The notes beneath the pieces are model-generated. The model was not told the origin of the DNA, ran no database searches, and saw only the letters and a list, made by a program, of their open reading frames with translations. 64,000 bases of DNA from NCBI GenBank assembly GCA_052327205.1, contig CM126209.1, positions 153,326,001-153,390,000 on the forward strand, given 5' to 3'. The translations under genes were made by a program, and so were the position numbers. Positions 8,501 to 58,719 of the stretch are shown here, one piece after another. This stretch comes from Somniosus microcephalus. Its lineage: Eukaryota. Within the stretch, counting starts at the first letter, position 1. The number at the start of each line of letters is the position of its first letter.

Positions 8501-9262
8501 GTTAGTACTTTTCTGTCTTTGCATTTATTGATATGGGTGGCATGTTGTAATTCCTTCTAAAAAGAGGTCACAGACTTGAATAGTTCCTCAATCTTTATAT
8601 GTAGAAATACAAGAAATGAACTTAAAACACACATAACCGTTGCACCCTTGAGTAATAAACCTCAAAGCCATTAACAGTTGTATTCCAAAATATAAATGCC
8701 TGCAGCAATACAGTAAATATTGACACCTAGGATACTAATTTGTAGGTTTTATGTAGCAAAAGAGAGAGAGCATAAATATTTACTATTTCTTGAGAGAGCT
8801 TTTATTATACTGCACAAAGAATGCAATGCTTCCTTGTGTTTCTGTTTAACCCTCTGAGTACTGTACCAAGATGGTATTTTAATTGTGTTTATCAAATTCA
8901 CTGCCTTTCATATCAGTTTGCTGAGTGTTCACAAGGAAACATTTTAGATTTCAGTACAAATTAGAATACTGCATATAATTTATGTAGCTTTTAAAGAAAT
9001 GCAGTACTCAAAGGGTAATGTGTGTAGAAGTCTAAATGCACTGATTTAGGTTGACCCTAATCAAGCGGTCTCTCTGTTTGTCTCTCCGCTATACACTCAA
9101 AAGTTATAGAGCGTACCTACACGCATGTTATATCAAAAGAAAGCTTATCATTAGGGGAGTCTAATAGGCATATTTACTTTTTGGTCAGACAAAAATTGTT
9201 CGGACAGTATACAAAAAAGGTTCAAAAAACCGCAACATTCCATTTATTAGCTTTGAGTGATG

Positions 9263-9390
9263 TGATGGTTGACCAATCGTACAGGGGATTAACCTGATGG
9301 TTGACCAATCGGTGCGTCACGGGGGGGCGTTTCATTGCGTGTGTGGGCGGGCCTAATCCTGCTGAGCTGAGGTGAGTGGCCGCCATCTTG
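9263..9390 (+). promoter_or_regulatory. Promoter-like module inside the Helitron-like element
   Basis: Duplicated TGATGGTTGACCAATCG (CCAAT at 9273 and 9305), TGCGTCA at 9313-9319, GGGCGGG at 9345-9351, GAG|GTGAGT donor at 9372, YY1-type GCCGCCATCTTG at 9379-9390. Confidence 0.55.
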
Positions 9391-9590
9391 ATTCCTAACT
9401 ATTGATTTATTTTTCCCACTTTCTGTGTGTACCCCGTTAGGTTCTTTTCTTAAGTTGCCTTCTTAGCTATGGGGTGCTTAAAAACCTGAACTTTAATATT
9501 TAGGAATCTCTCTTTATTGTAGTGGATGCGCGGAGCCATGGCCTAGCAGCGCGGGAAGCCTGGGCCTCGAGTTCAGCGGATTCCCGGCGC

Positions 9591-9719
9591 GCCCGGAACC
9601 TGTCGAACCTGCTCAAGGCCGTTCATTTCCGCGACCACGTCACCGTCTTCGCCTCGGCCAACGGCATCGGGGTGACGGCCGAGGCCGCCAAAAGCGTCCA
9701 GGGGAACGCGTTCATCCAG
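9591..9719 (+). pseudogene. RAD1: Captured fragment of a RAD1 (9-1-1 checkpoint clamp) coding exon
   Basis: ARNLSNLLKAVHFRDHVTVFASANGIGVTAEAAKSVQGNAFIQ aligns without gaps to human RAD1 as I recall it (VRNLSTILKAIHFREHATCFATKNGIKVTVENAKCVQANAFIQ, 29/43 by hand). Followed directly by CAG|gt. No in-frame ATG and no other RAD1 exons seen. Confidence 0.85.
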
Positions 9720-9957
9720 GTGCCGAGGCCCGGGCCACGGGAGAGGAGAGGGGAGGGAGGGACAGAGTAAAGCAGGGAGAGACGGGGGAGGGAGAGAGAG
9801 AGGGTGAGAGAGGGAAAGAGTGACGGGGTGGGAGAGGGAGGGAGAGCTCGCCTTCTTCCTTCCTTCCTTCCTTTGCAGGGGTCCATCGGGCCAGGCCTGA
9901 GGCGCTCCTTCCCCCCCCCCCTCTCTCTCCAGGCTAATCCTGAACTAAATCCAGCAG

Positions 9958-10284
9958 TGTCTCTCTCTCTCTTTTCCCCCCCCACCCCCCGTCTCTCTCT
10001 TCTCCCCCCAGTCTCTCTCTCTCCCCCCCGCCTCTCTCTCTCTCTCTCTCTCTCGCTCTCTCTCCCCCCCAGTCTCTCTCTCTCGCTCTCTCTCCCCCCC
10101 AGTCTCNNNNNNNNNNNNNNNNNNNNNNNNNNNNNNNNNNNNNNNNNNNNNNNNNNNNNNNNNNNNNNNNNNNNNNNNNNNNNNNNNNNNNNNNNNNNNN
10201 NNNNNNNNNNNNNNNNNNNNNNNNNNNNNNNNNNNNNNNNNNNNNNNNNNNNNNNNNNNNNNNNNNNNNNNNNNNTCCCCCCCC

Positions 10285-10331
<47 letters not shown>

Positions 10332-10378
10332 CCCAGTCTCTCTCTCTCTTCCCCCCCCAGTCTCTCTCTCCCCCCCAG

Positions 10379-10432
<54 letters not shown>

Positions 10433-10469
10433 TTTTTCTCTCTCTCTCTCTCTTTTTCTCTCTCTCTTC
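9958..10469. repeat. (CT)n/(CTTT)n microsatellite with repeated ctctcccccccagt units, spanning an assembly gap (N 10107-10275)
   Basis: Directly visible. Confidence 0.95.
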
Positions 10470-10729
10470 CAAAAAACAACATCCCCTCAAAAAACCCTCT
10501 CCACCGCCGGGCACTCCAGCTAGTTATCTATGCATGGCAAGCTCGCTGCTTGGAATGGGCCTAGTGTTGGAATTTAGTCAAAGGAGTTACGAATATTTGT
10601 GTGTCATGAGCCCTTAAAAGTAACAAAGTAACTTTTAAAGCAGTGAGTGGCTGTATCTGGGGGAGGGGATGGGGGCTGGAGGCAGCTAAGTGTAGAAGTG
10701 GCTGGCAAAAAATAATTAAAGGCAAAACC

Positions 10730-10935
10730 TCATGGAGGCGGGGCACTGGGCAGAATGATGAAACAATGAAATCTCTCTCTTTGGCTGGTAAAGAGGAAGT
10801 ACTGCTGCATGAGGTGAATGCAAGGAGGATTACTTGTTTGGTACTCCAGGGCATCCAACCTTGACAGGAGATGGCAGCTAGAGTCAATGCTGTGACCACA
10901 CTTGCATGAGATGGAAGAAGATGGCATGACTTAAG
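10730..10935 (+). mobile_element. Degraded Myb/SANT-like ORF remnant, probably Harbinger-derived
   Basis: KEEVLLHEVNARR and, in another frame, QEMAARVNAV. Resembles the ORF at 53980..54180. Confidence 0.45.
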
Positions 10936-11029
10936 GAAGTTGCCACAACACTAATTTGCCTGTCAACCAGTTCCAGATTTTCTGCTGGCCCATGCCAAGC
11001 CCTGACACAACCTTGCAGCTGTTTCATTG

Positions 11030-11690
11030 CTCATCATCCACAGGCATGGAATAAGCTTCCATACGTATGTTGATGATCACAAACTCTAGCTCTCCTCCAT
11101 TTTCCTCAGTCCCACGACTGTGTCTGTGTCACTCGACAGTCTGATGTTCAGTTGTAGCTGAGTCATGTTTTCTCCAGTTGGAGAATGGAAGACTGAAGCC
11201 TTCATTTTTGGTCCCCAACAGGCAGTTCACTTCTTGCTTACTGATTTGTTTGCTCCGGCTGAACCAGACTTGGGAGTATTTTTCGCATATTGTTCAGTCC
11301 AGAACTGAAATTTAAACCCCATATGCTGTACATCACTGATGACTTATTTCCACCTTTTTTCAAACATCACCCCCCTCCAACCCTATTTCACTCCTCCTGC
11401 CATGAAAGTTCTTCTGTCTTCATCAGCCTTCAACTATTTCTGCAATGACCTTGCTAGCTTCCTAACCTCCACCTTCCACCAATTCCAACTCATCTGAAAC
11501 ACTGCTTGCCTATCTTCCCTAACCCACGTCGGCTTTCTGGTTCCCAACACAATTTTAAGAACTTTGTCTGCATCACCTTGCCCCACTCTACCCTAACTTT
11601 ACTGCTTTCACCAATCTTGCATCCCCTCCCATGCTCTCTGATCCTCTGACTCTTACCTTCTGTGTACCCCCCCCTGTCTCTCCCTTAACC
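11030..11690 (+). mobile_element. Degraded L2 LINE fragment
   Basis: IIHRHGISFHTYVDD corresponds to the L2 RT HGISFHMYADD motif. Followed by gaagactgaagcc. Confidence 0.65.
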
Positions 11691-13237
11691 ACATAATCAT
11701 TCAGACAGTTACCATCTTGGCTTCATCTGAATGTGTATCTGGGAGCCTGTATTATTTCCTTTTCTATCATTGAAAGGCTGAAAGAGCAGCTTGATATTAC
11801 TATCAGCAGCCTGGAACAAGGTAGCATCTCACACATCCTGTGAGCACCAAATGGTATGGTACATTGGAAATTGTGGCATTGTTGTGTCAGTGAGACGTTT
11901 GGATGCTGCTGCGGCTGTTTGGGTTAGATGATGAAGATGCTGATTGATGCATCAGCCACCTGTTTAATATGTATATTGCCTGCACATTGGCTGATACTGC
12001 AGTTGATCCCCATCTTAGCTTGATAGGTGGTAGAGAAAGAAAGGTTGAGCTAAGACATGACCTAGATTGCCACTGGAAGTGTCAGCCTTAAGTTTAAGGC
12101 TCTTGCTGGTGTCCTTGGAGCAGATGGTGCATCTCTGCAACTGGCTCTCTGCTAACCTGAAGGCTGTTACTTGAAGGCCATTGCCAGGTAGGTGAACTGG
12201 GGTCTACAAATATGGTTGGCATAATGATGGATTTGAGCGGTCTGGCTGTGGTCTCTGCAGATCTCCCTGGTATGCCTCCTTTCAAGTTGCATCACTTCAA
12301 CTGTAAAATACTGTATTTCGGATGCTTCAGAACCAACAGTCCTCATTAATTGTAGTTGACAGACTGAACTCCATCAGTTTGTACATTTTTTGTGCTCTCT
12401 CACTTCCTTTTTGTTCTGCTCAAGTCTTGTAAATGCTTCAGTTACAGTTGGATATTAAGCGGCTTAGCCAACAATATTATTTTAGGTTCCACATAAACAT
12501 TACAAACTTATGACAAAAAAAATTCCCCAAAGGAAAGTGTTATAAAAATGTTTTTTTTAATTCTAAAAATGTACTATAAATATAGCTAAAGACATCTGTC
12601 CTTTTTAAGAACTGGCACAAATTACACTTCCTTTAGGTCATTGCCATTTGAAAACAGTACACACAGCACAATGCCATCCTAAGTGGATGAAAAAAAAAAT
12701 CACGCTTTTCTTAATGTAAGTGCATTATAAATTTAGGATTTTTCTGCTCTGGTACATCCAGCCATGGTTACTGAAAGTCAGTCCACATGGTGTACAGGGC
12801 ATTGTCTGTAGAAAGTAAATTTGTTTGTAGTGTACAGGGAAGGCATTGAACCTCGGAGGTCAGGAAAGTAGTAATAATGTTGAAAGCACTGTAAATAAAA
12901 AGATTGATACCTCGAGTGGTAATGGAAGCTGCGGAATAATTAGTGTTATTTATCGCATTTAGTTTGAACAGCATTCCTTCATGTCATGAAAGCCTCTACA
13001 TTACAATAGGTCTGTCATGGCATAGTTCAAAAGCTTTGCAGCATTCAGTGTGTTTCTGGTAAATTTAAAGTAACTTCAGTCTAATAGAGGCAATATTTTT
13101 TACATTAGTGGGTTAAAAACAATGCCAATATTGAGTTTATTCTGCTCTGAACAAGATTTTTATAGCTTGCACGTTGCTCTTGCTAATAGATTATTAAATG
13201 TTCATGTATATTAAGAATGCTGCATTTTGAATGTAAC

Positions 13238-13527
13238 TTAGAATCATAGAATGGTTACAGCACAGAAGGCGGCCATTCGGCCCATCGAGCCTGTGCCAAC
13301 TCTCAGCTAGTCCCTCTTCCCCGCCCTTTCCCCATAGCCCTGCAAATTTTTTTCCTTCAGATATTTATCCAACTTCCTTTTGAAAGATAAGATTGAGCCT
13401 GCCTCCACCACCCTTTCAGACAGTGTATTCCAGATCTTAACCACTCGCTGCGTAAAAACGTTTTTTCTTATGCCGCCTTTGGTTCTTTTGCCAATCACCT
13501 TAAATCTGTGTCCTCTGGTTCTCGACT
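13238..13527 (-). mobile_element. CR1 LINE 3' fragment
   Basis: SRTRGHRFKV...FTQRVVKIWN.L and an (AGAATCAT) tail. Confidence 0.85.
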
Positions 13528-13529
13528 TG

Positions 13530-14705
13530 TCAGTTGCATTCTTTGCGATTGTGATCATAGTATTCTTCATTTCTCCTTGACCTCTCTACAGCATTTAACA
13601 GTCAACTATTCTATTCTCATCCATGGATCTCCTCTATGGCATTCCCCTCACTTGGTTCCAATCCTATTTGTCACATCCTGCAATGGTTCTTCTCCCACCT
13701 CCATGGTTACCTCAAGAATGCCCAAAGGTTTCATCTTGGCCTCCTTCTATTCTTTGTCTGCATGCTTGCCCTTAGCAATATTATTCATAGATCTGGGTCA
13801 GCTATCTTATTTAAGCCAACACAACGAAGCTTTACCTCTCCACTACCAATCTCAAGACTACAAACACCACTGTTGTCTGACTGCTTGTTCAATGTCATCA
13901 TGAATGACTTGGAGGTTTCTTCAATTTGATTCTGACAAGAGCAAAGCCATCTGTGGCAAGACTGAAGCCATCCTGTTCATCTCTCACCAAAACCCTGCAT
14001 GCTACCCCATGATTCTATTGCCTCCCCAACTGCTTACTCTGAACCCATCAATGTGAAAACTCAGTTTGACACTAGGCTGACTTTAAACCTGATTATTAGC
14101 AAGGTGTCTATTTCCACTTCAAGATTGGTCACATCTACTCTTCCCTCACCTCAACGCCACTGAAATTGTCATTCGCACCTTCTACTTCCTGGCTTGATGA
14201 CTTCAATACTTTGACTTTGTCCTGAGTTTCACCCTACGTAAACTTCAACTTGCCCATAAGTCTGCCACATTTTATCTCTCACTAACTTCAACTTGGCTGT
14301 CATACTTATCCTCCCCACCTCCATTTGACTTAAGTTTCTCTCAAAATCCTTATTTACAAATCCTTCTACCCTCTCAGCCCTTGTAACCTCTTCCATCTGA
14401 ATGTGCCAACATGTATCCTCCTCTGCATCTCTCCTCTTCCCCACGTCCCCTCCTTTTCTCCCTCCACCCCCCCCCCCCCCCCCAGGTCCATCTTCAGTGG
14501 CAGAATTTCCTTAGCCCTATTTTTTTGGAACTTTCTCCCTAAACTCCCATTTTGCTGCTACTTCACTCCTTCAAAACACTCACCTTTTGAACCATGTTTG
14601 GCCACTTTCCATGCCGCCTCTACTAATGTTGTGTCCATTTTTGCCTCCTTTGTTGATTGCATTTGGATGCTTTCTATATTGAAGGAGCTATATAAATGCT
14701 TGTTG
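13530..14705 (+). mobile_element. Degraded L2 LINE fragment
   Basis: LQWFFSHL-like segment, aagactgaagccatc and an L2-type 3' end (gctatataaatgc). Confidence 0.55.
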
Positions 14706-15444
14706 ATTTTAATGTGTAGTTGACTATTTGATGGGAGTTTGGCAATTTTCAAGCAAGCTAAGTTCCTGGAACAGCCAGCTCTGAAAATTCTGACTTTATG
14801 CTAGCTGTAGAGATGAGTTCATACTGCAATAGATGCATTGTCTGCTGTAGTGTGAAATGTAGCCAGTTAAAATAATTTAAAATTAACAACATTAAAAAAG
14901 CAACAATGAACAAGGTTTACACATCACTGCTGACATCTCGGTGACCCCTCAGTTTCCAAACATAAGTAAAATATCTTGCAAGAACTCAAACGATAGTACA
15001 TTTTTAGCCTGGTTGTCTGTAAACCTATTTGGTTTTTCTGTTTTGAAATACTAAAAAAAAGTTACTTTTTTCTTGTGTGTATGTTTTAAATTAATGATTG
15101 CAAGTCGTATATTTAGTTGCGAGTGCTCTATACCTTTCCATATATTCACAAATTAAAAATCTAATTTCCCAACGCTACTTGAAAATTGGCATTTAAAAAT
15201 GCGCATGTTGCATGCTGTGTTAGCACAGTTGCTGACAATTTAGTGAGCAGTTTTTTTTCCCTCTGTTTTCATCACAAAGCACTTGGCTGTTCTAAATAAT
15301 AGAAGTCTATGGACCTAGTTTTTTTATTGCTTCCTATATTTAGTTCACTTTCTATTAATTTGCTTTCCCTATTGCTTGTTTGCTGTGGTTTCTCATGTCT
15401 TGTAATTTACGCTAATCTTGATTTTTGTACTGTAATACACTCAG

Positions 15445-15528
15445 TGAAAATGAGGATAAATCTGAGCATCGTCCCAAGCTTAATGTTCTTCGAGATGAAG
15501 AAATGTTTTATGACCTTGGTGACTATAG
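15445..15528 (+). CDS. PDLIM7: Candidate 84-nt symmetric cassette exon of PDLIM7 (ENEDKSEHRPKLNVLRDEEMFYDLGDY)
   Basis: gctaat branch-like motif at 15411, tcag acceptor, AG|gtaagc donor. Open in the phase 2-2 frame required by the flanking exons. Confidence 0.55.
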
Positions 15529-16296
15529 GTAAGCAGAGCAAGCATGAAACCTGCGAGAGTCCTGAATATGACTGGCTTTAAATCTCCTTTTTTGTATGGT
15601 TTGCTCACTTTTTTTATATTTTTTTAGCCTCATATTTTTGTTTCCTTATTTTATCCTTTTCTTCTCTCCAAGTAGCTTTCAGCTAAGAAGTCACCATAAG
15701 TTACACCACTCTTCTTGTCGTGTGACAACCTGGAAAAAAAACTTTCAGTATATATTCAGCAACTAGAGTTGGCCATGCACGGAACTATAAAACTTCTTTT
15801 AGTTTAATGTGCACTCCGTACTGTACAAAAATATGATCTGATATTTTTTAGTATTGCACAGAAATATACCTCCAGCTCAAAGGAAGGTTTTTGCTATAAA
15901 TGTCTTCCTGGTCTGCATGACTGAATGGTGCATCAGTCTGATAAATTTATATATTGAGTCATCAAGGACACTGAATGTAGTTGTGACCATTTTGGTCCTT
16001 CAGCACCTATTTAGTGAGGTGAGATCAAGTAGCAGATGAAATTAATATGAACAGAGGCACACAATGTTGTAACATTACTCAATTGAAATGCATGGTGTTG
16101 TTATTTGCACCTTTTCACTTTCTCTTTGAGAAAGAAATCCTGAATATTATATTGTCAGACTAACTAACTTTTGAAAAGTTGATGAGTTTCTAAATGATAT
16201 GTGACCTTTTGGTAAAAACCATTTTTGAACATGTCTAATCTGATGAGACCCAGAAGATGCAGTATGTACTGTTTCAATCTCCCATAAAAGCTACTA

Positions 16297-16640
16297 CAGG
16301 TAGACTACCTTTTTATCCGAACTTCCGAAAACCGGAACCCTCTAAAAACCGAAGGTTTTTTCGTTCAGCGTAAGTCGTGCGCACGACATGACCAGAGTGG
16401 CGCACGACTTACGCTGAGCAGAGGGTCAGCGTAAGTCGTGTGCACGACCCCGGCCCCCGCCGACGACCACCCCCCCCCCCCCCCCACGCCGACCCCCCCC
16501 CGCCGACCCCCACCGCCGACCCCGATGACCCACCCCCGACAAATTTCCCAGTCTTATAAAATACCTTCCGAAATCCGATATTTTCCGAAAACCGAAACAC
16601 TGCTGGTCCCGAGGTTTTCGGATAAAGGATAGTCTACCTG
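16297..16640. mobile_element. Tc1/mariner-pogo-type MITE
   Basis: TIRs CAGGTAGACTACCTTTTTATCCGAA / TTCGGATAAAGGATAGTCTACCTG. TA on the left, TG on the right. Confidence 0.85.
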
Positions 16641-17283
16641 TGCCACGATTGGTAGTCATGTGCTTACTTTTGTATACATCGTTCTATTCTCTCCTGCTTC
16701 TCATATATTGGAATATAGAGCTCTAATGGCTCCCCTTCTCGTTTCCCACCAAACAAGCTCAGTGTAAAAGATTATGGTCCAGTTTTAAACTTTGAAATCA
16801 AATACCAAGTTTAAAAGGAGAGGTATTGCTATCAGCAGAAATAAGTTATTGGATTTTGTGAAAATAAGCCATAGAAAGGGAAAATGCTTTGGAGTAATAG
16901 TAGTGGTACTAAAGCTAAAGTGCATCATTGAGCTTGTGTGGAGAAATGTTTGGTTAATATCACCTGGCCTCTAGTTGGCTGGTCTGATATTTTCTTCTGG
17001 AATAGTTTACAGCTGATGCCTTTGTTTTTTGGAGGACATATGAATAGAAAATAATTTTACACACTTGTGAAGTCCTGTCTGTGTTGTCGTCTTTTTTTCC
17101 TGCAGTACTGACAAGATGGCTGGTGACTGATCATCTCTTTTGAGAGGCCAATTCTGTAACAGATCAAAATACATTATAGAATTTCAGATCCTCCTCCTAC
17201 ATGGTATTTGCTGATTGTAACCTTTCTGCCTTTGGCAGTAGTTGCAGTTAGAATACTTGGAGGATTTTTCTGATGGTTTTAGG

Positions 17284-17706
17284 TGTCAGCCTTGGCTCAG
17301 TGATGGCACTCTTGCCTCTGAATCAAAAGGTTCTGGGTTCAAGCCCCACTCCTGAGACTTGAACACACAATCTAGGCTGACACTATTGGCGGTGCTGTCT
17401 TTCAGATGCAATGTTAATTAATGCCCCATCTGCTCTATCGGGTGGAGCTGAAAGATCCCATAGCACTATTCGAAGAAGAGCATGGAAATTCTTCCGATGT
17501 CCTAGTCAACATTTATCCCTCAGCCAACCTCACTAAAAACAGATTATCTTGCCATTATCGCATTGCTGTTCTTGGGACCAAGCTGTGAAAAATGGCTGAC
17601 ACTTTTCCCTACCTTACAGCAGTGACTCACATCAAAAGTACTTTATTGGCTGTGAAGCATTTTGGGTTATCCTAAAGTCATAAAAGGCGCTATATAAATG
17701 CAAGTT
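17284..17706 (+). mobile_element. tRNA-derived SINE of the Deu type (SacSINE1-like)
   Basis: A-box tggctcagtg and B-box ggttcaagcc, central aaagatcccatagcactattcgaagaagagca region, L2-like tail gcgctatataaatgcaag. Confidence 0.8.
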
Positions 17707-17777
17707 CTTCCTTTCTCTTTTTCTTTCACACTCTCTTTTTCTTCTTTCTTTGAACACCTAACAAACACATAATTTAG

Positions 17778-17929
17778 GCATTCTACCAGGGTTGACCATC
17801 GTGTTATTATCCACAATGATGCCAGTAAGAAGCGACTGATGGAGAACACTGAGGATTGGCAGCCAAAAACAGGAACAACCCAGTCTCGCTCTTTCCGTAT
17901 CCTTGCTCAGCTGACGGGCACAGATTTCA
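17778..17929 (+). CDS. PDLIM7: PDLIM7 exon (...DASKKRLMENTEDWQPKTGTTQSRSFRILAQLTGTDF), phase 2 to 1
   Basis: Conserved QSRSFRILA motif and A|gtaagt donor. The acceptor could be 17778 or the in-frame 17790. Confidence 0.93.
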
Positions 17930-18199
17930 GTAAGTGCAGTGGCACCATTAACATCCAATGACATAACAAACTGCATGTTAAACGGACAGTTGATATTTTC
18001 TTGAAACATTAATACAAAGCTTCTCTTGCCTCTCTGACAAATGTAATGGCAAACTTCCACATTCATTCAACTGCTGAAGACCTACTGTATCACATGTTTT
18101 GTGAGGAAAATTTGTTTGATCTGATGTTTTAGGTGAAACATGTAATGCATTATTTAAGCATATGGACTGCAGAAAATCTTTAGCTTTGAAAAAGAGGGT

Positions 18200-18720
18200 T
18201 AGAAGAACCGCTTACATTTATATATCACCTTTAACATAGTAAATGATCCAAGGTACCACAGATCAGCAATGAATACCAAGGAATGATCCAGCCAATGACC
18301 AACATGTGATTGAAGAAATGGCTGACAGGGAGACTTTGAAGTGGGGTCGGAGATAGTTGAAGTGGATGGGTTTAGGAACAGAGTTTGAAAGTAGGGACAG
18401 GATGGCTGAAATCTCTGCCATTGATCAGGAGGGCAACGTGGAATACACAAGAGGCCACAGTCAGAATATCAAAGAGCATATGCTTGGAATTAGGTCTGGA
18501 GCAAGGTGCAGAGGTAGGGTGGAGTAAGGCCGTGGATGGAATGGAATTCAAGGCGGGAGTCAGTGGAGGTTGGTGAAGTGGGGGATGATGGGCAAGCAGG
18601 ACTTTGTGAAGGACATGCATGGGTAGCAGAAATTTGGAGGAGTTGGAGTTGCATGGGGTGGAGCTTAGGAAACTGCTGAGGCGGGCATTGGTACAGTTGA
18701 GGTTGGAGATAACGAGCATA
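18200..18720 (-). mobile_element. Degraded L2 LINE 3' fragment
   Basis: Reverse L2 tail (cttacatttatatatcacctttaac) and remnants of the L2 C-terminal region. Confidence 0.6.
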
Positions 18721-19557: not shown

Positions 19558-19594
19558 TGCGAGATCCAGATGATGAAGTTGTTAAAAGGGCAAG
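19558..19594 (+). CDS. PDLIM7: PDLIM7 37-nt exon (MRDPDDEVVKRA), phase 1 to 2
   Basis: ttcag acceptor, AG|gtaaga donor. Matches recalled human MQDPDEEHLKKS. Confidence 0.92.
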
Positions 19595-21391: not shown

Positions 21392-22300
21392 TGAAATAAC
21401 AACAGAAATTGCTGGAAAAACTCAGCAGGTCAGGCAACATCCGTGGAGAGAAATTTGAGTTGATGTTTCGGGTCGAAACCCTTCTTCAAAACTGGAAAGA
21501 AAAGAAAATAGATTGAAGGCAGGGCTGCGATCGAACAAAAGAAGTAAAAGAGACAATAAAAGGTATTCGAAACCAGACGAGATGGTAATAGGCCAGTGGA
21601 GACAAAAGACAGCTGAGATTAGGTGTAAAGTGTACTGGCAGGATAGGAGACAGCTGCCAGGTGGGAGAGAGAAACAAAAGGAAAGGGGAGGGGGGGTGAA
21701 GGAAGACCCAAAACCAAAGGGGTGGAAAAAATTACAAGTAAAAAAAGTAATAGGGGCCGAGGTTATGATCTGAAATTGTTGAACTCGATATTTAGTCCGG
21801 AAGGCTGCAAAGTGCCTAATCGGAAGATGAGGTGCTGTTCCTCGAGTTTACGTTGAGCTTCCATGGAACAATACAAGAGGCCAAGGACGGTGAGGTCCGA
21901 GTGGGAATGGAGCAGTGAATTAAAATGACAAGCGACTGGAAGCTCGGGGTCACCCTTACGGACTGAACGGAGGTGTTCCGCAAAGCAGTCCCCCAATCTG
22001 CGTTTGGTCTCCCCCTTGGGGAACATCTCCGTTCAGTCCGTGAGGGTGACCCCGAGCTTCCGGTCGCTTGTCATTATTACCATCTCGTCTGGTTTCGAAT
22101 ACCTTTTATTGTCTCTTTTACTTCTTTTGTTCGATTGCAGCCCTGCCTTCGATCTATTTTATTTTCTTTCCAGTTTTGAAGAAGGGTTTCGACCCGAAAC
22201 ATCAACTCAAATTTCTCTCCATGGATGTTGCCTGACCTGAGTTTTTCCAGCAATTTCTGTTGTTGTTTCGGATTTCCAGCATCTGCAGTATTTTGCTATG
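21392..22300. mobile_element. Penelope-like element fragment with inverted pseudo-LTR arrangement
   Basis: GIY-YIG remnant GETKRRLGDCFAEHLRSV...LQPSGLNIEF (ORF 21763..22026, minus). 21392-21590 is the reverse complement of about 22074-22270. Confidence 0.88.
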
Positions 22301-23757: not shown

Positions 23758-23763
23758 AATAAA
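23758..23763 (+). terminator. Candidate polyadenylation signal for the short isoform
   Basis: First AATAAA I noticed downstream of the 23105 stop. Usage is not shown. Confidence 0.35.
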
Positions 23764-48940: not shown

Positions 48941-49192
48941 GCTTGCCAACTATGGTTGCCTGTATTCCAGGAGGATTCATCACATGACCTCCCTCCCACC
49001 TCCACCAGCCTTGCCCAGTTGACCAGCTGCATTATCCCATTTTCTAACTAAAGTATTCAAAGCAAATGAAAAGGCGCACCATTTTATTTAATGCCCCTGT
49101 GATTTTTCTCCTGGATTGCTCGCAGCAATGTCCAGGAGATTAATCTTCAATTCCTGAAGACTCCGGGACAACCCTGGAGGGTTGGCAACTCT
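48941..49192. mobile_element. Old MITE-like element
   Basis: Inverted ends ttgccaac / gttggcaac. A related left end occurs near 24410. Confidence 0.35.
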
Positions 49193-50413
49193 GCTGATTC
49201 TGTTACATTAATGCGATCATGAATGGAATTCCATTTTAGGTAGACCATATTCCATTTCATATACCGATTAAAAATAGGTAGAAATGGTGAGTGGACCCTT
49301 TGTAAAAATGTGTTTGCATTTTCCCTTGGTATTGTCAACATGGGCTTGGATTAATTTTATCGACGTTTAAATTCCGAATGCATTTCATAGGTGGTTTCAA
49401 AAATGCAATGCAATTAGCTGCAACTTCAGTGAATTCACACCATGAAAAGTGTACAAATGCAAGATCAAACCTGAATAATTAAAATTCTAAATTAAGCTTA
49501 ACACAAATTTTCAAAGCCCAGCAAAATAATGCAGGAATATGATCTCCACTTGGTCATCAGATTCTGCACCATGTGAAGGTGTCATACCAGATGTGGAGCA
49601 GAAAAGAGAGGAATGAGTCATCCAGGGTCTTGTTTCAATAACTAGCCATAAGCAACACCAGGGAATTTGAACAGCCTGTGTTACCTTTTGTCAGCATGCG
49701 TACACAATGTGAGGAGAGAAAATAGGGCTAACATCAGAATGACTGAGTAGGATCATTAAAGCACACACACACATTCAATAATCAAGTATTATTTCTGCAT
49801 GAATTCCTTCAAAATATAATGTGTGAAGGAATACTGAATTATGAAAAAGAAAAGGTGCTACCACAGTAAGGAGAGATGGTGGTTCTAAATATTGGCTATA
49901 AATTGTCCAGCAACTATACAGATTTACACCAGACTGACTTCAATTATGTAAATAGTGTTTAAATCTGCACAAGCTAAACAAGTTTACATATATGTGCCTT
50001 GTGTACATCTTTGTGAATGACACTGGTTTTGTGTCCATTGCTCCACATTTTTTCCATTCTATGGATTACATTTTTGTACACGATTATTCAATGGTAATGC
50101 AATAATGTACGTTTAACTGAGATTTTTATTTTTATGGAACGAAGAAGCAAGGCACCTTGCAATCTCCCACTATAATTCATTGATTTTTTTTTTCTCAGGT
50201 CCTCAAAGTAGTAATCCTCTCTTTCCCTCCTTCTTCCCTCCTTCCTGCAATCTCCTGGTCTTTTAAAACCCAGGCAGTACGTTCGTTCATTATTTTCTGG
50301 TTTTCTTGCTGCCTTTCTTGCTCTTTTCAGCCTTGTTCATGTCCTAAACAACGGGCCTTGGCTCTTAGCTGTGGTTTCTCAACTTAACCAGAGCAAAATG
50401 TTGAACTGTTAAT

Positions 50414-51167
50414 GGCCCAGAAATTCGGGTCGGGGGCTTCCCGCGGGTGCAAGCCCCCGACCTACACTTGCATATCGCGCTGACATTTGAAGACTGGGCC
50501 TGCTTGGATTTCTGGTCTGTGGCCCGGTTCAGCTCCCAGCGCGCTGTGCGTGCGTGATCCAGTGGCGTACTTAGTGCGATGAGCCGGCTGGGATCACGTG
50601 AGCACTGGGCAACCAATGGGAGTTTACAAAAGTCCATTCATGAGTTAGACATAAGACCTGTCAAACTCATGAAAAGTACGGGTGCCCAAAACACTACTTA
50701 AACTATAAATAAAAGTTTAAAAAACATTCCAATAATTAAATTAACTATTAATAACTTAAGAAACTAATTTAAACAATTATTCAAATTACTGCCAAAAAAT
50801 TTTTTTCAATACATCGGGTCCAAAAATACACTTACCTTACTGTAAATTCTTTAAAAATAATAAACCTGTGGAAAAAAATTTCTAACTTTAATTATTAGAC
50901 CACTTACCTTATAAAACGAAGTCCTTACATCTGCTTTTTACATTCGTAAAAAGTGGAGGTCTTCACGCACAGACAAACCTGTGGAAAAAAACAAAGTTCA
51001 ACGTGTACGCGCTGCCTCAAACGTCGCTAGGGAACCGCCTCTTAACCCCTTGGTTCAGAGGAGAGGAAATGCCGGTTTGCTGCGCATGCTGAAATCCGGC
51101 ACTTCCAACAGGCCCACGCGTGAGTACCCCGTCCGTACTCGCGCGTTGGGACCGGAATTACTGGGCC
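50414..51167. mobile_element. PIF/Harbinger-like MITE
   Basis: TIRs GGCCCAGAAATTC / GAATTACTGGGCC with a 3-bp TSD AAT on both sides. Confidence 0.8.
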
Positions 51168-52566
51168 AATATATATTTTTACTGTTGTCACTAAACTAAT
51201 TCACTGTCTAAAAAGCCTCAGTCAAAAGATGGTGAAATAGTTGACTAAAGTGGTTTCAGTTGTGTTTGACTTAACTCGGTATATATGTAGCAATCCAATA
51301 ACAGGAAACCTGCTTTATGAGCATTTGAGATCTACATAGGTAGAGAACTCTGATTTTTATCTGAGAGTTTATCACAGAGAAAAGATAACAGCCAGCGAGG
51401 GAAAAGGAAGCAGAGAAAGAACAGGTGAGCTAAAGGTGGCCAAGATTTAAAGCAATGTACATGTCTTATTTTTTGATCCATTCGATACAAAGCTCCTGGA
51501 GTAAGGAGGAAGGTCTCTGTTTATGACACGTCTCTTCTAATTTCTGCTATGCCAATGTAAACCTGAATTGCCTCTCTCCATTCACGTGCATTTTGCTGGC
51601 TGCACTGTTCCTCCTTTGTTTTTCCCTTGTGCCCTTCTTTCCTGTCTCCTTCCCTTCCTGTTGCCTAGTCACGCCACCTCCTCTTTTCTCCCCTCGTGGC
51701 TAATTTGCCTCCCCCAAGCCATCACTTCTCCTTTACCTTCCTACTCCCCTATCTCCATTCAAGGCTTGAATCCCTCTTGGATATTCCAACAACTACCCCC
51801 TGTGGCGCTCTCAACATTCTCCATCAAGGCACCTGTCGCTGCCTCCTTACGAGCAGCAACGCCAACTGCTCCATCCTCCTCCTCTCACCAGTGTTCCTGC
51901 CCAGCACACCTGCTGGGGGATGACCTTGCCAACTTTCTTCCTATCCTGCTGACCCCGTTCACCATTGCTGCCTTGGACTTGACCAGCAGACCAAAATCAC
52001 TGCCCCTCTCTGCATTTCCCTCCAGAATATCCAAACATTTGCAAACAAGGCCCTCGTCATCCATGACCTTATTGTGGATGATTCCATTGTTGACCTGGCT
52101 CACACGTGGCAATATTTTGTCCCTTACTGAAGCCTCACCACTGGCTAAACTTTCCACCACCTGCCCTGTTTAAATCCCCATGATGGCAGTGTAGTCTTTA
52201 TCATCAAATGACATCTTCGCTTCCCCCTCCTACTTCTCTGGTTTTATCTCCTCCTTCAAGCACCTCACTATTGTTACAATCTGTCCTTTAAAATCCTCTT
52301 TGTCTACTGCCCCTGCAAACATCATCCCAGTTTGACACCGAGATATCCTCCCTCTGCACTGAGTGACTATGCATTCTTAGTGATTTCAATCTTTATCTCC
52401 GTTCCCCTTTCCTTCTTTCCTCTGAATTCAGTTGATGTTCTCCACTCCCTAAACTGCTCCCTCCAAGATAAATTCTCCAACCCATAATCACATCTAGCCT
52501 TCGATCCTGCCATCTACCATGGTCTTGCTACTCCCAATGTTTCTACCACAGGCCATCTCAGACTAC

Positions 52567-54435
52567 GGGGTCAATTTTCTGGCTGCCATCGGGCGGTTTT
52601 TCAGGCGGCCAGGGGCCGAAAATTGGCGAAAAAGCGGGTCGGGCCCCCCCCCCCCCCCCCCGCCTGATTCCCCGCCCCGTCCAACTTTCGGACCGCCGTT
52701 TCCCCGCGACCCACTTCAGTCCCGGCCGCCGCTGGCGGGACTGGTCGTCAGCACACTAATTACCAATTATCAGCTTGTTGAGGTAGTTATTCCGGGGCCA
52801 TTGCAACTTTGGGGCTTTCCCCACATCAAACCCGCCTGCAGGGAACCTCGCTGCTGAGACCTGGCGTGAAGCTTGCCGGCTTGCTAGCTGTCAGCTGCAG
52901 GTTAATCGGAGAAGCTGCGATTTAAAGGGACAGCACTTGTATGTTGAAGGACCTTGTTGCAGTTTTGGGGCTACTTCTTCAAGGCTTAGGCACAGCTGTG
53001 GAAGGTTGGAGCCTCACACACTTCTCCAATGCGATCTCCTGGGAAGCCCCTCTCGCCACCCTCACTCAGCGCTTCCTCAGCGGAGGCACCTACGAGAAGC
53101 ATGGGACACCTTTTTTTCCTTCCCTTCTTGCCATTAGAGGATCTCCAGCAGCAGAGGCGGCAGCCGCAGAAACAGGAACAGCAGGATCAGCAACAGGAGC
53201 ACCAGGCTGCTGCTCACTCACCTGAAGCTGCACAGGCCAGAAGGGGCCAGCGCTTGGAAGTGGCTTGAGAGCACCTTGCTGTGCTTTAGGGGGGACCTGT
53301 TTCTGCACTGGCAGTCCTACTCAGAAGGACTTCCATGAAGGTTTGGTTTCTCTGTTCAACAGATGGCCAACGCTCCTCAAGAGATGTCATTCGCTTATGA
53401 GCACTCACCATGTTTTCCGTACCCTGGTGAGTTATCTCCTCCATGGAGGTTGCCAACCTTTCCATGGTGATGCGTTCATGCACCAATGACTCCACAAAGG
53501 CTCTGCTCATGGTCACTATGGACTCCTCCATTGGCTACACACTCGCAGCGACCCTGGAGACAAAACCTGCCAGAGACTCCTGCATCTGTGCATGGAGATC
53601 CATCACCTCTTCTCTTGCAGATGGACCCAGAGGCAGAGGGTCGACATGCAGCGCAGCTGAGCTGAGCTGGCAGAATCCAGCGCCCTCCGACGAGGACTCT
53701 CCACTGCTGTTCCTGTCTCCAGAATCTGCTGAGGCTCACTTGTGAGCTGTGAAACACCAGGTGACAACACTACTCTATGTCCCAAAGGTCCCCCGAGGTG
53801 TGAGTGTCTGCACTGGTGCTGGGTGTGCTGACGCTGTGCCCTCAGAGGTTGGAGCTTCCTCTGAGGAATCTGGCTGCACAGCCTCTTCCTCCTCCACAGT
53901 GAGGACGGGGGCTCTGGATGGTACTGTGGGGGAGTAAAGGAAGGAGTTAGAGATGTAATGCCAAGGTTCTTCTGGTGACTCACAGTGAGTTGGCATCTGC
54001 TGACACCTGCATCCATGCGGCATTGGTCTCAGTGGGAGTCCTCTTCCTCTCTGACCTAGGGAAGAGGAACTCCCTGTGGGCCCTAACCCCATCCAATAAT
54101 GCCTGCAGTGAAGCCTCGTTGAATTTGGAGGCAGCTCGGGGACTGGCACTGGCCACAGCTGCTGCAGGCTCCTCTGCCATCCTGTATGGTTTGTTTGGAA
54201 GCCTTCAGAGGATGCAGTGCTTGCTATGGACCTTGAAAGCACCATGAATGATGACATCATAATGTGGGGATTTCTGACTCGAATTGGACAATTAGCAAGG
54301 CTTCCCACATGCTGGGAATTAATTGGCCACTTGAGGGAAAATTGCGTGGAGCTGGCTGACACTTTTTTATGTGTGTCAGAAACCCCACATTTGGGGAAAC
54401 CCGACCATTTCCCACACAAGCCGAAAATCGGGGCC
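52567..54435 (-). mobile_element. Harbinger-type DNA transposon derivative with a Myb/SANT-like ORF remnant
   Basis: Imperfect TIRs GGGGTCAATTTTC / GAAAATCGGGGCC and 3-bp TSD TAC. ORF 53980..54180 gives RAASKFNEASLQALLDGVRAHREFLF...AAWMQV. Confidence 0.8.
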
Positions 54436-55821
54436 TACTTCCTTGTATCCCTCATTGCCCTGTCCCCTTCCAACTTCTCTTTCTTTTGTGTTCATGCCTG
54501 AAAGAAACTCTCCTCTAAATCATTTACAACTGCACTTTTCTAAATCTCAACTGCCTAACCTTTGTCACTCCATTAGCCACAGTATTTCTGCAGTCAACAG
54601 TCTGATTATCACTCCTTCATGTCCACTTTTGATGCCATTTTCCCCAGTCAGGGTGAATCCCGCTGCCCCCCCCCCCCCCACCACTGGTACGGCCTCCATT
54701 TCTATCCCTCAAGTTCCTGGGGTGCAGACTTGTGCGTATCTGGAACACAGTTGGTTTTGCCATCTATCACCACATGAAGTGCTATCAGACTTTGGTTCCT
54801 CTGCCAAAGGTGTCAATATTTCATGCTCATCCTGGAGAGCAAAGATAACCCATGGCATTTTTTCCTCCACTTCCAACTCTCTCAAGTCTCTCTCCCCTTC
54901 CTCACCTAAAACACAAGTGTGAGGAGCTCATTGACTCGAGCACTAAGATTGAGACCATCCATTCAACAGTCTTTGCTGCTTTTCCTCTCGCCCCCCCCCC
55001 CCCGCCCTTGCTCACCAAGCCAAACTTCCCCCCTGCCGCAGCCCTGAACCTATATCTTTCTCCAGTTTCCCTATCTCTCCTCATACCAATTTCAAATTCA
55101 TCGTATCTTTCTTATTGGCTTGACTCCCTTTTCACTAAACTCCTGACTGCCCAACTTCCCTTCCTGGCCCTCATTCTAGCTAATATTTTAATTGGTTTCC
55201 TCTTCTTGGGTACTGTGCCTCTCACTTTCAAAACCATCACCGTAACCCCTTTTCAAAAAAGTAACCTCATCCTATCTGTCGGTGCAAACTACCACCACAT
55301 CTCCAACCTCCCTCTCCTAAGTTCTTGAGCATTGTTGTTGCCTCCTAAATCATTGGTCATCTTTCTTGCAATCCTGTGTTTGGATCTCTCCAGTCTGGTT
55401 TCCATCCCTGCTACAGCACTAAAATGGCCCTGACTAAAGTCACAAATGACACCCACTGTAACTGTGACAGTGGTGCATTATCCCTCTCACCTCTTTGCAG
55501 CCTTTGTCATGGACGATTATACCAACCTCCTCCAATGCCTTTCCTCCATTATCTAGCTCTGTAGGATTGCTCTCGCTTGGTTCCACTCTTACCTATCTGA
55601 TCGTAGCCAAAGCACCTGCAGCAATAGCTTCTCTTCCCGCTCCTGCACCATTACCTCTGGAATCACTCAAATCTATCCTTTCCCCCTCCTTCCTCATCTA
55701 CATGCTGCCCCTTGGTGATATCATGCAGAGACATGGCATCAGCTTCCACATGTACGCTGACGACACCCAATTCTACTCCCCAATACCTCTCTCACCTCGA
55801 AGACTGCTTGTCGAACATACA

Positions 55822-56310
55822 AGGCTGAATTTTAGCACACAAAAACAGATGGGTTGGGTTCAGGTCAGATATTTAAATTTAAAAAATCTGGACCCCAACC
55901 CAACCCGCCTCCAACCTGCCCAGTTCCGGGTTTTATGGAGGTGGGACAAGGGACGGGCAGTCAACCTGCTCCCAGGTGATGGGTTGGCAATTTAAATATT
56001 TTAATGAGGTTGGCAGCCTCTGATTTCACTTGCTTTACAGGATTAACTGTGGCTGGCTGGGTTTCCCAGGCTTCGGGAAACCAGGCAGCTAAAGTGAGGG
56101 AGGACAGCTTCGGGGAGAAGCTATGTGCCTTCACAGCACTGCTTGTGGGCCTAGGAGGACCAGGAGCCGCTGCCCCATGAGACCCCCATCCCGTACAAAG
56201 GTCGGGGATTGGACTCCCCTCGGGGATCAGAGACCCGCCCATCCCCCACCTTAAAACTCCCCAACATGCCCCTGCTGCTTACATAAATCACCCCTGTTAA
56301 TATCCAGGCC
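55822..56310. mobile_element. Harbinger-like MITE nested in the L2
   Basis: Imperfect ends AGGCTGAATTTTA / TAATATCCAGGCC and 3-bp TSD ACA. L2 sequence resumes afterwards. Confidence 0.6.
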
Positions 56311-57655
56311 ACAATCTCCTTCAATAAAACATTGGGAAGACTGAAGCCATCATCTTCAGCTCTCGCCACAAACTCCGTACCCTCATTACTGATTCCAAAC
56401 ATCTTTGTGGCCGTTGTCTCAGGACGAACCAGAATGTTTGTTTATAATCTTGACATCCTATTCCACACTGCCTAAGCTTCCAACCTCATGTATTCCCCAT
56501 TACAAAGACCTCCATCTCGGTAACATCATCCGCTTGCGCCCCTGCCTCAACCCATCTTCTGCTGAAACCCTCATACATTCCTTTGTGACTTCCAGACTTG
56601 ACTATTTGAATGAATGCTCTCCTAGCTGGCCGCCCATTCTGCGCTCTCTTAAAAACTTAAGCTCAACCAAAACTCTGTTGACCAAATCTTGTCCTGCAAG
56701 TCCCGTTTGCCCATCACCCCTATCCTGCTGACCTACTCCTCAAATTTAAAATTCTCATCCCTATCCTTGTTACTTCCTTCAACTCTAACCTCCTTCCTCC
56801 CCCCCCCCCCCCTTACAGTTCTCGATTCCTCTGACTGGCGTTTTGTGTATACCTTGCACCCCCCCTCCCTTTACATCACCAACGGTGGCTGTGCCTTCAG
56901 TCACCTAGGCCTCACTCTGAAATTTCATTGCTAAACCCCTCCGCCTTTCCACTTCCATCTCCTCCTTTTAAGACCCTCCTTAAAACCCACCTCTTTGACC
57001 AAACTTTTAGTCACCTTTCCTAATATGTCCTTTGTCTCAGCATCCATTTTTGTCTGATTACGCCTCAACGAAGGCCCAATATAAATGCAAGTTGTTATCA
57101 TAATTTCTAAAAGTTGAATTAATTTGTTTAATTGGTGAAGTATTTCTTTTTTTTTCATCCAGTTGTGATGACCATAAGTTTTGGGAGAGAGGGTTCTTTG
57201 CCATTTCCCAGATCATCACTTGAGGGGGAGAAAGGTGGTCTTCAAAGCCTCATTCTTTCATCTGTTTGGCATTCTATTTTTGAAATTGGCTAGGACACTT
57301 GATGTGTTAAAATATGTAAAAGCGGAAAAATTGATTTTGTCCTGGGATGTTACCCTATAAAGGTAGATATATCTGTGGCACTAAGATGTACTTATCTGCC
57401 TTAACACAAACAGCCAAGGGACAGATATGTGACTCGCAAATATCTCTTCAGTTGTACAGCTGTGTAAATTTATACAACTGACTTAATAATGCTTGGGTAT
57501 ATGAACAAATCAGCTTAATGACTGCAGCAGAAAAATCTGTTTTATAAATGTGAACTTTTCTCTATACAGAAGGGGTGCTGTTGTCATCATACCACACCAG
57601 TTAGAAAAATCAAGATTAACATTGCCTGATGTTTGACTTTGCTCCTTTTGTTTAG

Positions 57656-57836
57656 AGGTCGCTATCTTGTAGCTTTGGGCCGTTCTTGGCATCCTGAAGA
57701 GTTTACTTGCAATCAGTGCAAAATGACCTTGACTGAGGGAGGATTCTTTGAGGAACAGGGCTCTGTGTTCTGTGGAAAATGCTATGAAAACAAGCATGCT
57801 CCCAATTGTGCCAAATGCAAACAGAAGATTATAGGC
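57656..57836 (+). CDS. PDLIM7: PDLIM7 LIM1/LIM2 exon, 181 nt
   Basis: [21 protein letters not shown]...[23 protein letters not shown]. tttag acceptor, gtgagt donor, phase 2 to 0. Confidence 0.97.
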
Positions 57837-57949
57837 GTGAGTAATATTGTACATTTGTAGCTTTAAATACATAAATGATTTGTATAAAGAAAGCCAATTT
57901 GTGAACCAAAAAATATATGCATAGCCTTTAAAATATTCATCAGAAGCGC

Positions 57950-58335
57950 TTTCTCTGGAGTTTAGAAGAATGAGATGTCTTGACAGGGTAGCTGCTGGGA
58001 GGATATTTCCCCTGGCTGGGGAGTCTAGAACCAGGGGCCACAGTCTCAGAATAAGGGGTCGGCCATTTAGGACTGAGAGGAGGAGGAGAAATTTCTTCAC
58101 TCAGAGGGTGGTGAATCTTTGGAATTCTCTACCCCAGAGGGCTGCGGATGCTCAGTCGTTGAGTATATTCAAGACAGAAACCGATACATTTTTGGATATT
58201 AAGGGAATCAATGGATATGGGGGTAGTGCAGGAAAGTGAAGTTGAGGTAGAAGATCAGCCATGATCTTATTGAATGGCGGGGCAGGCTCGAGGGGCCGAA
58301 TGGCCTACTCCTGCTCCTATTTCTTATGTTCTTAT
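57950..58335 (+). mobile_element. CR1 LINE 3' fragment
   Basis: ESRTRGHSLRIRGRPFRTE...FTQRVVNLWNSLPQ and a (TTCTTATG) tail. Confidence 0.9.
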
Positions 58336-58373
58336 TTAAGTGGAAAGCCAGGTAGATGGATCCAAGTCTATTA

Positions 58374-58719
58374 CAGGTTGGACCCCGGTAATCCGGCACC
58401 CTCGGGACCAGGCCGGTGCCGGACCATTGAAAATTCCGAACCACTGAATGTGTCGAAAGTCACCACAAACACCGCCACCACCTGCTCCTCCTCTTCCTGC
58501 TGCTGCCCTCCCTGTGCCGCCCACGGGCTGCTCGGGCTCCATCGCTCCGCCGAGCCGTCGGTGATTCTGCGCGGTCCAGGCGCTGATCCTGACCCGGTGG
58601 CGGTCCCGGGACCCGAGCCGGACCCATCCCAGGGAGGGAATGTGACAGCAGGACCTTCCTCGCGCCAGACCACTGAAGGTGCCGGACCGTCGGGTGCCGG
58701 ATTACCGGGGTTCAACCTG
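58374..58719. mobile_element. Tc1/mariner-pogo-type MITE with captured host sequence (Pack-TIR-like)
   Basis: 28-bp TIRs CAGGTTG(G/A)ACCCCGGTAATCCGGCACCC with one mismatch. TA on both sides (58372-58373 and 58720-58721). Confidence 0.9.
58449..58655 (-). pseudogene. DENND11: Captured fragment resembling the first coding exon of DENND11 (LCHN/KIAA1147)
   Basis: Open minus-strand frame ending QQQEEEEQVVAVFVVTFDT matches the recalled DENND11 motif EEDQVVAVFVVTFDPRSGN. Preceded by low-complexity G/S/P-rich sequence. The match is short. Confidence 0.7.

Follow-up and report, generated by a model that had tools for sequence, protein, structure and literature searches.

Host first coding exons amplified by a Helitron family and a Tigger-type family in the shark Somniosus microcephalus

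INTRODUCTION

In one 64-kb window of the Somniosus microcephalus genome (the whole stretch of 64,000 nucleotides analyzed here), a rolling-circle and a cut-and-paste transposon each hold a GC-rich coding fragment of a host gene, which raises the question of whether transposons in this shark preferentially take up the 5' ends of genes and, if so, at which step the preference arises. Earlier work on bats, Xenopus, and rice, and on multicopy Pack-TIRs, has already described capture biased toward 5' ends and GC-rich DNA (PMC4224331, PMC12001565, PMC5861414, PMC8277862). Our literature search, which lay outside subscription journals and Repbase, found no paper combining cartilaginous fish, Helitron, DNA transposon, and gene fragment; it returned only general reviews for gene capture by shark Helitrons and nothing relevant for a captured exon in a shark Tigger, and the word "shark" is absent from the main text of Tan et al. 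2021 (PMC8277862).

RESULTS AND DISCUSSION

A nonautonomous Helitron carries the first coding exon of RAD1

The Helitron (positions 9061 to 10523, plus strand; 10107 to 10275 are N) has a shorter 5' end than its siblings. It starts with TC after an A and terminates with CTAG before a T, with no target duplication, and thus it displays, as its siblings do, the end signature of Helitron1 (5' TC, 3' CTRR, between A and T). Two sequences were folded for a subterminal hairpin: the window copy is not more stably folded than its shuffled versions (z 0.94), and one sibling has a short stem of -4.1 kcal/mol (z -0.54). The 3' end has 4,575 exact matches genome-wide, and head-to-tail Helitron arrays are common. 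Among 407 Helitron_like_N candidates for the Rep/helicase partner, eight loci were fetched, and six of these have the ends of the window Helitron. Comparison with transposase-coding elements (L286/287 and L290/291) identifies positions 10470 to 10500 (plus strand) as what is left of the transposase start codon and the codons after it; a deletion joins this relic to the 3' terminal 30 nt, and the ATG is mutated in the window copy.

Upstream of this relic lies the RAD1 cargo (9528 to 9758, plus strand; Pfam Rad1, E 6e-10), which consists of 64 nt from upstream of the ATG, the remainder of the first coding exon, the splice donor at 9720, and the start of the intron. A 66-nt deletion has removed the ATG and the first 22 codons, leaving a piece with neither the start codon nor the promoter of its parent. 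There is a single RAD1 parent exon (G000:C40:6.883 Mb), to which the cargo is 89% identical over 64 nt and 93% identical over 168 nt, and about 1,000 candidate Helitron copies carry the cargo. RAD1 and non-RAD1 Helitron subfamilies share sequence on either side of the cargo, and the junction shows only 1 nt of microhomology.

The RAD1 piece adjoins 23 nt (9506 to 9528, plus strand) from intron 1 of a second gene, which lies on C19 and is here called the C19 gene. This relic is identical at 23 of 23 positions to L429, differs by one gap from the parent (L452), and matches the version found in a sister Helitron subfamily, so that an earlier cargo was followed by a later one in serial capture. 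About 1,000 Helitrons contain the first coding exon of the C19 gene in full, with its donor and about 130 nt of intron; the parent encodes an uncharacterized conserved protein of 340 to 400 aa. For five further GC-rich Helitron modules (586, 429, 2220, 115, and 224 candidates), the top 30 loci of each included no parent, so that these modules are only putatively of host origin; a protein search with one of them gave no match. A Pfam search of 107 Helitron interior frames gave one weak hit (E 0.034), a result that says little, because the proven C19 exon likewise has no Pfam hit. AT-rich segments also occur inside the Helitrons.

The promoter-like DNA belongs to the Helitron backbone

A block at about 9245 to 9395 (plus strand) contains what we take to be two CCAAT boxes, a GC-box-like motif, and a YY1-like site, together with a donor-like GT at 9372. 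Its derivation from the RAD1 promoter was considered and rejected, as the block has no match within 30 kb around RAD1 and occurs in 47 of the 49 family members sampled with a visible 5' end. It is also found in five of six fetched transposase-coding loci of this family, upstream of the transposase frame, and is missing from the sixth. The initial annotation was thus right that one element has promoter-like DNA, but this DNA is not the promoter of RAD1.

A Tigger-type element carries DENND11 and, in some copies, OSTM1

The second element (58374 to 58719, minus strand) is of the nonautonomous Tigger/pogo type, with inverted ends of about 30 nt and TA duplications at 58372 to 58373 and 58720 to 58721. 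TA flanks both ends in 29 of 30 loci, among which 28 flanks are distinct. The partner transposase contains DDE_1 (E 4e-43) and HTH_Tnp_Tc5 (E 3e-12) domains; the name Tigger, which we presume to be appropriate, rests on these domains and on the similarity of the ends to Tigger rather than on a tree. Two unrelated DNA transposon types are therefore present in the window, as initially described.

The DENND11 piece (58450 to 58662, minus strand) covers most of exon 1 and has no promoter, ATG, or splice donor of its parent. The parent exon (C16; L073:293-523) begins with ATG, ends at GT, and lies about 11 kb upstream of the exons encoding the DENND11 domain, on the same strand; 211 of 213 aligned bases are identical, plus two gaps. 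Roughly 150 copies of the element carry this piece. In 10 copies, exon 1 of OSTM1 (Pfam OSTMP1, E 1.7e-6; parent L203) has been added within the DENND11-carrying element, again with neither promoter nor ATG.

Of 249 listed Tigger ends, the first 100 were resolved into the 79 elements that form our sample, 10 of these elements being assigned by coordinate matching. DENND11 was carried by 30, DENND11 with OSTM1 by 3, and a nongenic filler by 4; plain deletion forms accounted for 34 (2 of them interrupted by other insertions), and transposase sequence was present in 8. The filler, with about 24 carriers, has a GC content of 0.47, and its nearest nonelement matches are 81 to 84% alike. Cargo takes the place of the element's interior, with apparent microhomology of 4 nt and 3 nt at the DENND11 junctions and of 4, 3, and 2 nt over the family. 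Since at most 18 unexplained bases lie between the paired arms of 69 reexamined elements, and the elements with unpaired arms were resolved separately, the sample holds no hidden cargo type. This third Tigger cargo at first looked as if it came from two exons on C23 with 9.7 kb between them; the locus is instead a copy of the element into which an LTR-type sequence has inserted, and RNA-mediated capture was therefore rejected.

Traced cargoes come mostly from CpG-island first coding exons

The GC-rich fragments initially described as RAD1-like and DENND11-like are indeed pieces of first coding exons whose single-copy, CpG-island parents could be located. The RAD1 and DENND11 parent exons have a GC content of 0.64 to 0.69 and a CpG observed/expected ratio of 0.84 to 1.06 (0.36 for the window). 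The single-copy parents lie on other chromosomes, and the sequence retrieved around the four of them (RAD1, DENND11, OSTM1, and the C19 gene) contained no element ends. At least four host genes have contributed a first coding exon, each of which now exists in ten to about a thousand copies.

Of the five cargoes traced, four are first coding exons from CpG islands and the fifth is a nongenic repeat, in a set for which the initial annotation had chosen two (RAD1 and DENND11) and in which coding pieces are traced best; among the three cargoes traced independently, the proportion is two of three (OSTM1 and the C19 gene). First exons account for 76 of 78 RAD1 matches and for all but 4 of 117 scored matches to the C19 gene, those 4 being downstream exons at one locus, and no amplified internal coding exon was found for the three genes searched. 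CpG-island-like sequence makes up 42 of 78 distinct Helitron interior tiles, nested transposons included, versus 60 of 1,737 background tiles. The proposed bias toward CpG-island 5' ends is partly supported, in these two families, by the independent cargoes and by the tiles; one cargo in five is nongenic, and five modules had no parent among their top 30 loci.

Two cases in a single window do not argue for widespread capture, because each case is one old capture amplified many times. With about 1,000, 4,575, and 150 copies assumed and random placement, about 1.5 windows of 64 kb with both element types are expected genome-wide by chance, and about 7 if any family member counts; the colocation was accordingly discarded as evidence.

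Copies lose CpG sites rapidly and evolve neutrally

CpG transitions in the copies are 7.9, 7.7, 11.2, and 5.3 times as frequent as non-CpG transitions, in copies that were the best BLAST matches rather than a random draw. Synonymous counts fit the neutral expectation (P 0.31 to 0.70); raw pN/pS values of 0.31 to 0.95 had suggested selection on the cargo, a signal that disappears once CpG rates are allowed for. With CpG lost 5 to 11 times faster than other sites and no selection, the copies look silenced, and their substitution pattern suggests that they are likely methylated. The parents have lost 4 CpG sites versus 13 expected (P 0.003), and their CpG islands may therefore be open in the germline.

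The Helitron transposase frame is transcribed, on one strand. In two RNA runs (tissue unspecified, 24 to 31% of each read), the listing, which covered the best-supported loose ends, included no GT..AG splice joint from the Helitron donor or to the acceptor-like site before the transposase ATG; no run was listed as containing the Helitron element itself. Dispersal of promoter and exon modules, as initially proposed, has occurred physically, but no host promoter was traced, decay is of the methylation type, coding change is neutral, and the RNA shows no splice joint.

How the cargo was acquired

We consider it probable that both families take up host first coding exons through template-switch gap repair with a preference for CpG islands, the loaded elements then being amplified, methylated, and decayed. 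A first coding exon would likely have been copied into an element by template switching while an internal gap was repaired, and the switch likely prefers CpG islands unmethylated in the germline, which would place the bias at acquisition rather than at amplification or detection. Cargo-bearing elements would then have multiplied by ordinary transposition, and their copies would likely have been methylated and left to decay. Because the cargo lies inside the elements, in the Helitrons upstream of the transposase start codon, template-switch gap filling is favored; alternatively, a transient element, since lost, may have resided beside the parent exon.

Unbiased capture followed by better transposition of elements with GC-rich or promoter-like 5' pieces seems unlikely to us. 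It would agree with the higher copy numbers reported where bat Helitrons have acquired 5' pieces (Thomas et al. 2014, PMC4224331), with the promoter-like block in nearly all sampled Helitrons and the transcription of the frame downstream of it, and with the excess of DENND11 carriers over filler carriers (33 versus 4 of 79). However, neither promoter nor ATG comes with the DENND11 and OSTM1 pieces, plain deletion forms are equally common (34 of 79), OSTM1 carriers are fewer than filler carriers, and the first-exon bias is present by event, not just by copy. That GC-rich first coding exons are simply easier to see and trace, AT-rich captures passing as backbone, is quite improbable: two of the four gene cases did come from the initial annotation, tracing relied on protein matches, five modules have no mapped parent, and AT-rich interior pieces exist, yet the Tigger sample hides no cargo type, two of its three events are first exons, and internal coding exons, although as easily detected, were not amplified for the genes searched.

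We regard as very improbable that Helitron cargo arose by 3'-end bypass (read-through) from an element in a CpG island, followed by recombination. Helraiser, for which this was shown, inserts 6.9-fold more in CpG islands and transduces downstream DNA (PMC4778049), and head-to-tail arrays are common here; the cargo, however, precedes the relic of the transposase start, the elements retain their original 3' end, the parents have no Helitron ends nearby, and the Tigger cases would be left unexplained.

A bolder version of template-switch acquisition appears doubtful. The 5' untranslated intron of the Helitron transposase would be a cargo bay into which host first exons are serially swapped through template switching at CpG islands open in the germline, a host promoter block acquired early would drive the transposase and have let the lineage take over, the same repair route would feed unrelated cut-and-paste families, and first-exon capture would be a genome-wide property of cartilaginous fishes.

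Comparison with known systems

The process is known; what is new is the animal group, a shark, and the unusually high copy number for a cut-and-paste family. Like HelibatN3 and other 5'-capturing Helitrons of Myotis (PMC4224331; Grabundzija et al. 2016, PMC4778049), for which an excess of 5' gene ends is reported, the Helitrons here captured 5' UTR, first exon, donor, and intron start at the DNA level, with about a thousand copies and serial capture. HelibatN3 has the NUBPL promoter and drives chimeric transcripts, whereas here RAD1 contributed neither promoter nor ATG, the promoter-like block does not derive from that gene, and chimeric splicing was not observed. The hosts also differ, a cartilaginous fish here and a bat there. 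In Heli1Xen1 of Xenopus laevis, 17 of 19 captured coding fragments are similarly from 5' ends, but there are 64 insertions in all versus about 1,000 candidate copies per cargo here; the authors of that study call the reason for the 5'-end preference of DNA transposons, and its mechanism, unresolved (PMC12001565).

The Tigger-type family resembles multicopy Pack-TIRs such as Pack-hAT-N8_XT (PMC8277862) in its apparent short microhomology, in carrying 5' pieces of genes that tend to be GC-rich, in its distinct target sites, and in having element-free parents on other chromosomes, the fetched flanks of L073 and L203 having no element arms. Four multicopy cases were reported in 100 reference genomes, with 3 to 5 copies in the examples, compared with roughly 150 here, and unlike those cases, a second first exon (OSTM1) was added in a later step. 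Rice Pack-MULEs likewise duplicate GC-rich, low-methylation, broadly expressed gene regions preferentially, a preference for which open chromatin has been suggested as the reason (Zhao et al. 2018, PMC5861414), but they are plant elements of the Mutator superfamily with thousands of independent events, whereas here few traced events were highly amplified.

With a host exon spread to more than a hundred sites, this vertebrate cut-and-paste element surpasses the multicopy Pack-TIRs published so far. Because the genome still contains two unrelated young families together with their parents, their empty and transposase-coding forms, and serial intermediates, biases of acquisition, amplification, and detection can be told apart computationally. 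For RAD1, DENND11, OSTM1, and other genes, the thousands of first-exon copies will also complicate annotation, the mapping of reads, and the calling of CpG islands.

Host gene context

The window contains LIM-domain exons of a PDLIM5-like gene (57630 to 61808, plus strand; exons at about 57657 to 57800, 59605 to 59721, and from 61683), and both elements lie upstream of or between these exons. The DENND11 piece in the Tigger-type element is antisense to the PDLIM5-like gene.

A probable capture bias in two transposon families

The stretch under study, G000:C8:153,326,001-153,390,000, lies in an assembly (G000) of 6.45 Gb. Its host gene appears to be PDLIM5-like, judging by LIM-domain exons on the + strand at 57.6 to 61.8 kb. 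Both elements described in the initial annotation are real and carry first-exon pieces of host genes, the Helitron (9061-10523) from RAD1 and the Tigger-type element (58374-58719) from DENND11. Their co-occurrence in one window, which had been taken as a pointer to widespread capture, is expected by chance. The proposed bias toward 5', CpG-island ends fared better: by event, four of five traced cargoes (captured pieces) are CpG-island first coding exons, as are two of the three found independently of that annotation. By our own estimate, first exons occupy well under 1% of a genome this size, yet they supply four of five cargoes, so that the bias is probably real, although the sample comprises five events in two families.

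Organization of the Helitron family

The window Helitron starts with TC after A and ends with CTAG before T. Its 23-nt 3' end has 4,575 exact occurrences genome-wide; siblings share this end, have a slightly longer 5' end, and occur in head-to-tail arrays. Folding of two sequences gave no 3' hairpin in the window copy and a weak one in a sibling. Coding elements comprise, in order, the 5' end, a promoter-like block (about 9245-9395 in the window copy), a donor-like site, variable GC-rich pieces, a pyrimidine tract, an acceptor-like AG, and the transposase ATG, and non-autonomous copies, including the window's, have a deletion from just past this ATG to the last 30 nt. Every Helitron cargo seen lies upstream of the transposase start, from which we infer that internal filling fits better than 3' read-through.

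The promoter-like block is present in 47 of 49 sampled Helitrons with a visible 5' end and in five of six fetched transposase-coding loci with matching ends; in the sixth (L300/301), which lacks it, the 5' end reaches the frame in about 370 nt. The block was either gained early or lost in the L300/301 lineage. The 30 kb compared around the RAD1 parent (the single-copy gene from which the cargo derives) held no match to it.

Two RNA runs of unspecified tissue were used; a DNA run of the same organism matches the window's flank. Over the Helitron 5' part, family reads fall on both strands, with no splice joint among those listed, and over the transposase frame they fall mainly on one strand. Helitron transposase reads, at L287:1250-1950, are strongly one-stranded in both runs, and open transposase frames reach about 1,900 codons (the longest includes N), suggesting that the family may still be active.

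Cargoes of the Helitrons

The RAD1 piece matches Pfam Rad1 (E 6e-10) and human RAD1 in PDB (E 3e-13), and a Pfam search places its parent on contig C40. The 1,026 candidates, of which only 40 were scored, are not an exact copy count. Seventy-six of 78 RAD1 matches are first coding exon, and two later exons occur at the parent only. From the first coding exon the cargo has lost 66 nt comprising the ATG and 22 codons; what remains of that exon is flanked by 64 nt from upstream of the ATG and, on the other side, by the donor and the beginning of the intron. RAD1 was therefore captured at the DNA level. Few Helitrons carry it: among 49 elements sampled by position in which the 5' end was visible (81 ends examined), it was present in 2. 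Most RAD1-carrying siblings (L032-L060) have, just after the RAD1 piece, a tandem duplicate of the exon's final 109 nt plus donor, which the window Helitron lacks. In the parent, the first coding exon of RAD1 is followed by an intron (L082/L084; G000:C40:6.874-6.883 Mb) that consists of several kilobases of GC- and CpG-rich repeat and whose start aligns at about 76% with a purine-rich tract in the RAD1-carrying Helitrons. This raises the possibility that simple repeats may guide template switching.

A second cargo, a 470-nt piece with 1,047 candidates, encodes the N-terminus of a conserved protein of 340-400 aa. Of 12 homologues of the exon, 11 bear shark, ray, or skate names and one is unnamed, which makes the source of the window likely a cartilaginous fish. 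The piece is 91-92% identical to its parent on contig C19 and extends from a short part of the 5' UTR through the entire first coding exon and its donor to about 130 nt into the intron. Among 117 scored matches to this gene, only 4 are to downstream exons, and these occur solely at the parent locus. In the window, a 23-nt relic of the C19-gene intron (9506-9528), an exact match to the Helitron-borne form, adjoins the RAD1 piece, so RAD1 likely replaced, or was added to, an earlier cargo.

Five further GC-rich modules (GC 0.58-0.69; CpG o/e 0.71-1.13) gave no parent among the top 30 loci each. CpG-island-like 100-nt tiles made up 42 of 78 distinct interior tiles from 42 sampled elements versus 60 of 1,737 in background, the former overstating host capture since nested transposons are included. 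One of the five modules (L141:654-861), with a donor-like end, has 2,220 candidates, exceeding every traced cargo. At window 50415-51168 lies a short element whose ends are inverted and whose arms are CpG-rich; elements of similar appearance are nested in several Helitrons (L175, L189, L191), and at L097 a Helitron of this family sits within a Tigger-type element.

Tigger-type cargoes

TA duplications flank the Tigger-type element in 29 of 30 loci, and its partner transposase has DDE_1 and HTH_Tnp_Tc5 domains. The family numbers about 330-430 (333 arm matches; 425 candidates). The interior is identical to DENND11 exon 1 on contig C16 at 211 of 213 aligned bases. This exon is so named because it lies 11 kb upstream of Pfam DENND11 exons and resembles the human DENND11 N-terminus. 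Among 79 elements (identified from the first 100 of the 249 ends listed, 10 of them assigned by coordinates), 30 carried DENND11, 3 DENND11 plus OSTM1, and 4 non-genic filler; the remainder were 34 plain deletion forms and 8 with transposase sequence. Extrapolation gives roughly 150 DENND11 carriers. The OSTM1 cargo (10 copies), which derives from a CpG island on contig C9, consists of the end of exon 1 and what appears to be the donor, followed by a short stretch of intron. For the filler, with GC 0.47 and about 24 copies, a few loci outside the elements are 81-84% alike, and by eye these resemble an old LINE. Cargo junctions, read off alignments, show microhomology of 4, 3, and 2 nt.

CpG decay and comparison with known captures

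In the parent exons CpG o/e remains close to 1. They have lost 4 CpG sites, whereas decay as fast as that of the copies would have removed 13 (P 0.003), a retention consistent, at the sequence level, with an unmethylated germline state. In cargo copies, CpG loss is 5-11 times faster than at other C and G sites, and coding changes fit neutrality.

The captures here belong to an already known kind. In published reports, Helitron capture shows a 5' excess in bats (PMC4224331) and Xenopus (PMC12001565), Helraiser has a preference for CpG islands and can read on past its own 3' end (PMC4778049), open chromatin is put forward for Pack-MULEs (PMC5861414), and multicopy Pack-TIRs show microhomology and high GC but are rare and low-copy (PMC8277862). 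Our literature search on Helitron and DNA-transposon gene capture found no shark study. Two features stand out: the Tigger-type family combines many copies with serial capture, and the Helitrons carry their cargo in front of the transposase start. In addition, this genome allows the cause of the 5' bias to be tested.

The window also holds a second, distinct Tigger-like short element (16297-16641); between its inverted ends the sequence is GC-rich and repetitive, and no gene cargo was recognised there by eye. At 21393-22269 lies an inverted repeat whose arms, each about 200 nt long, are 98% complementary and which contains a smaller inverted repeat of 60 nt.
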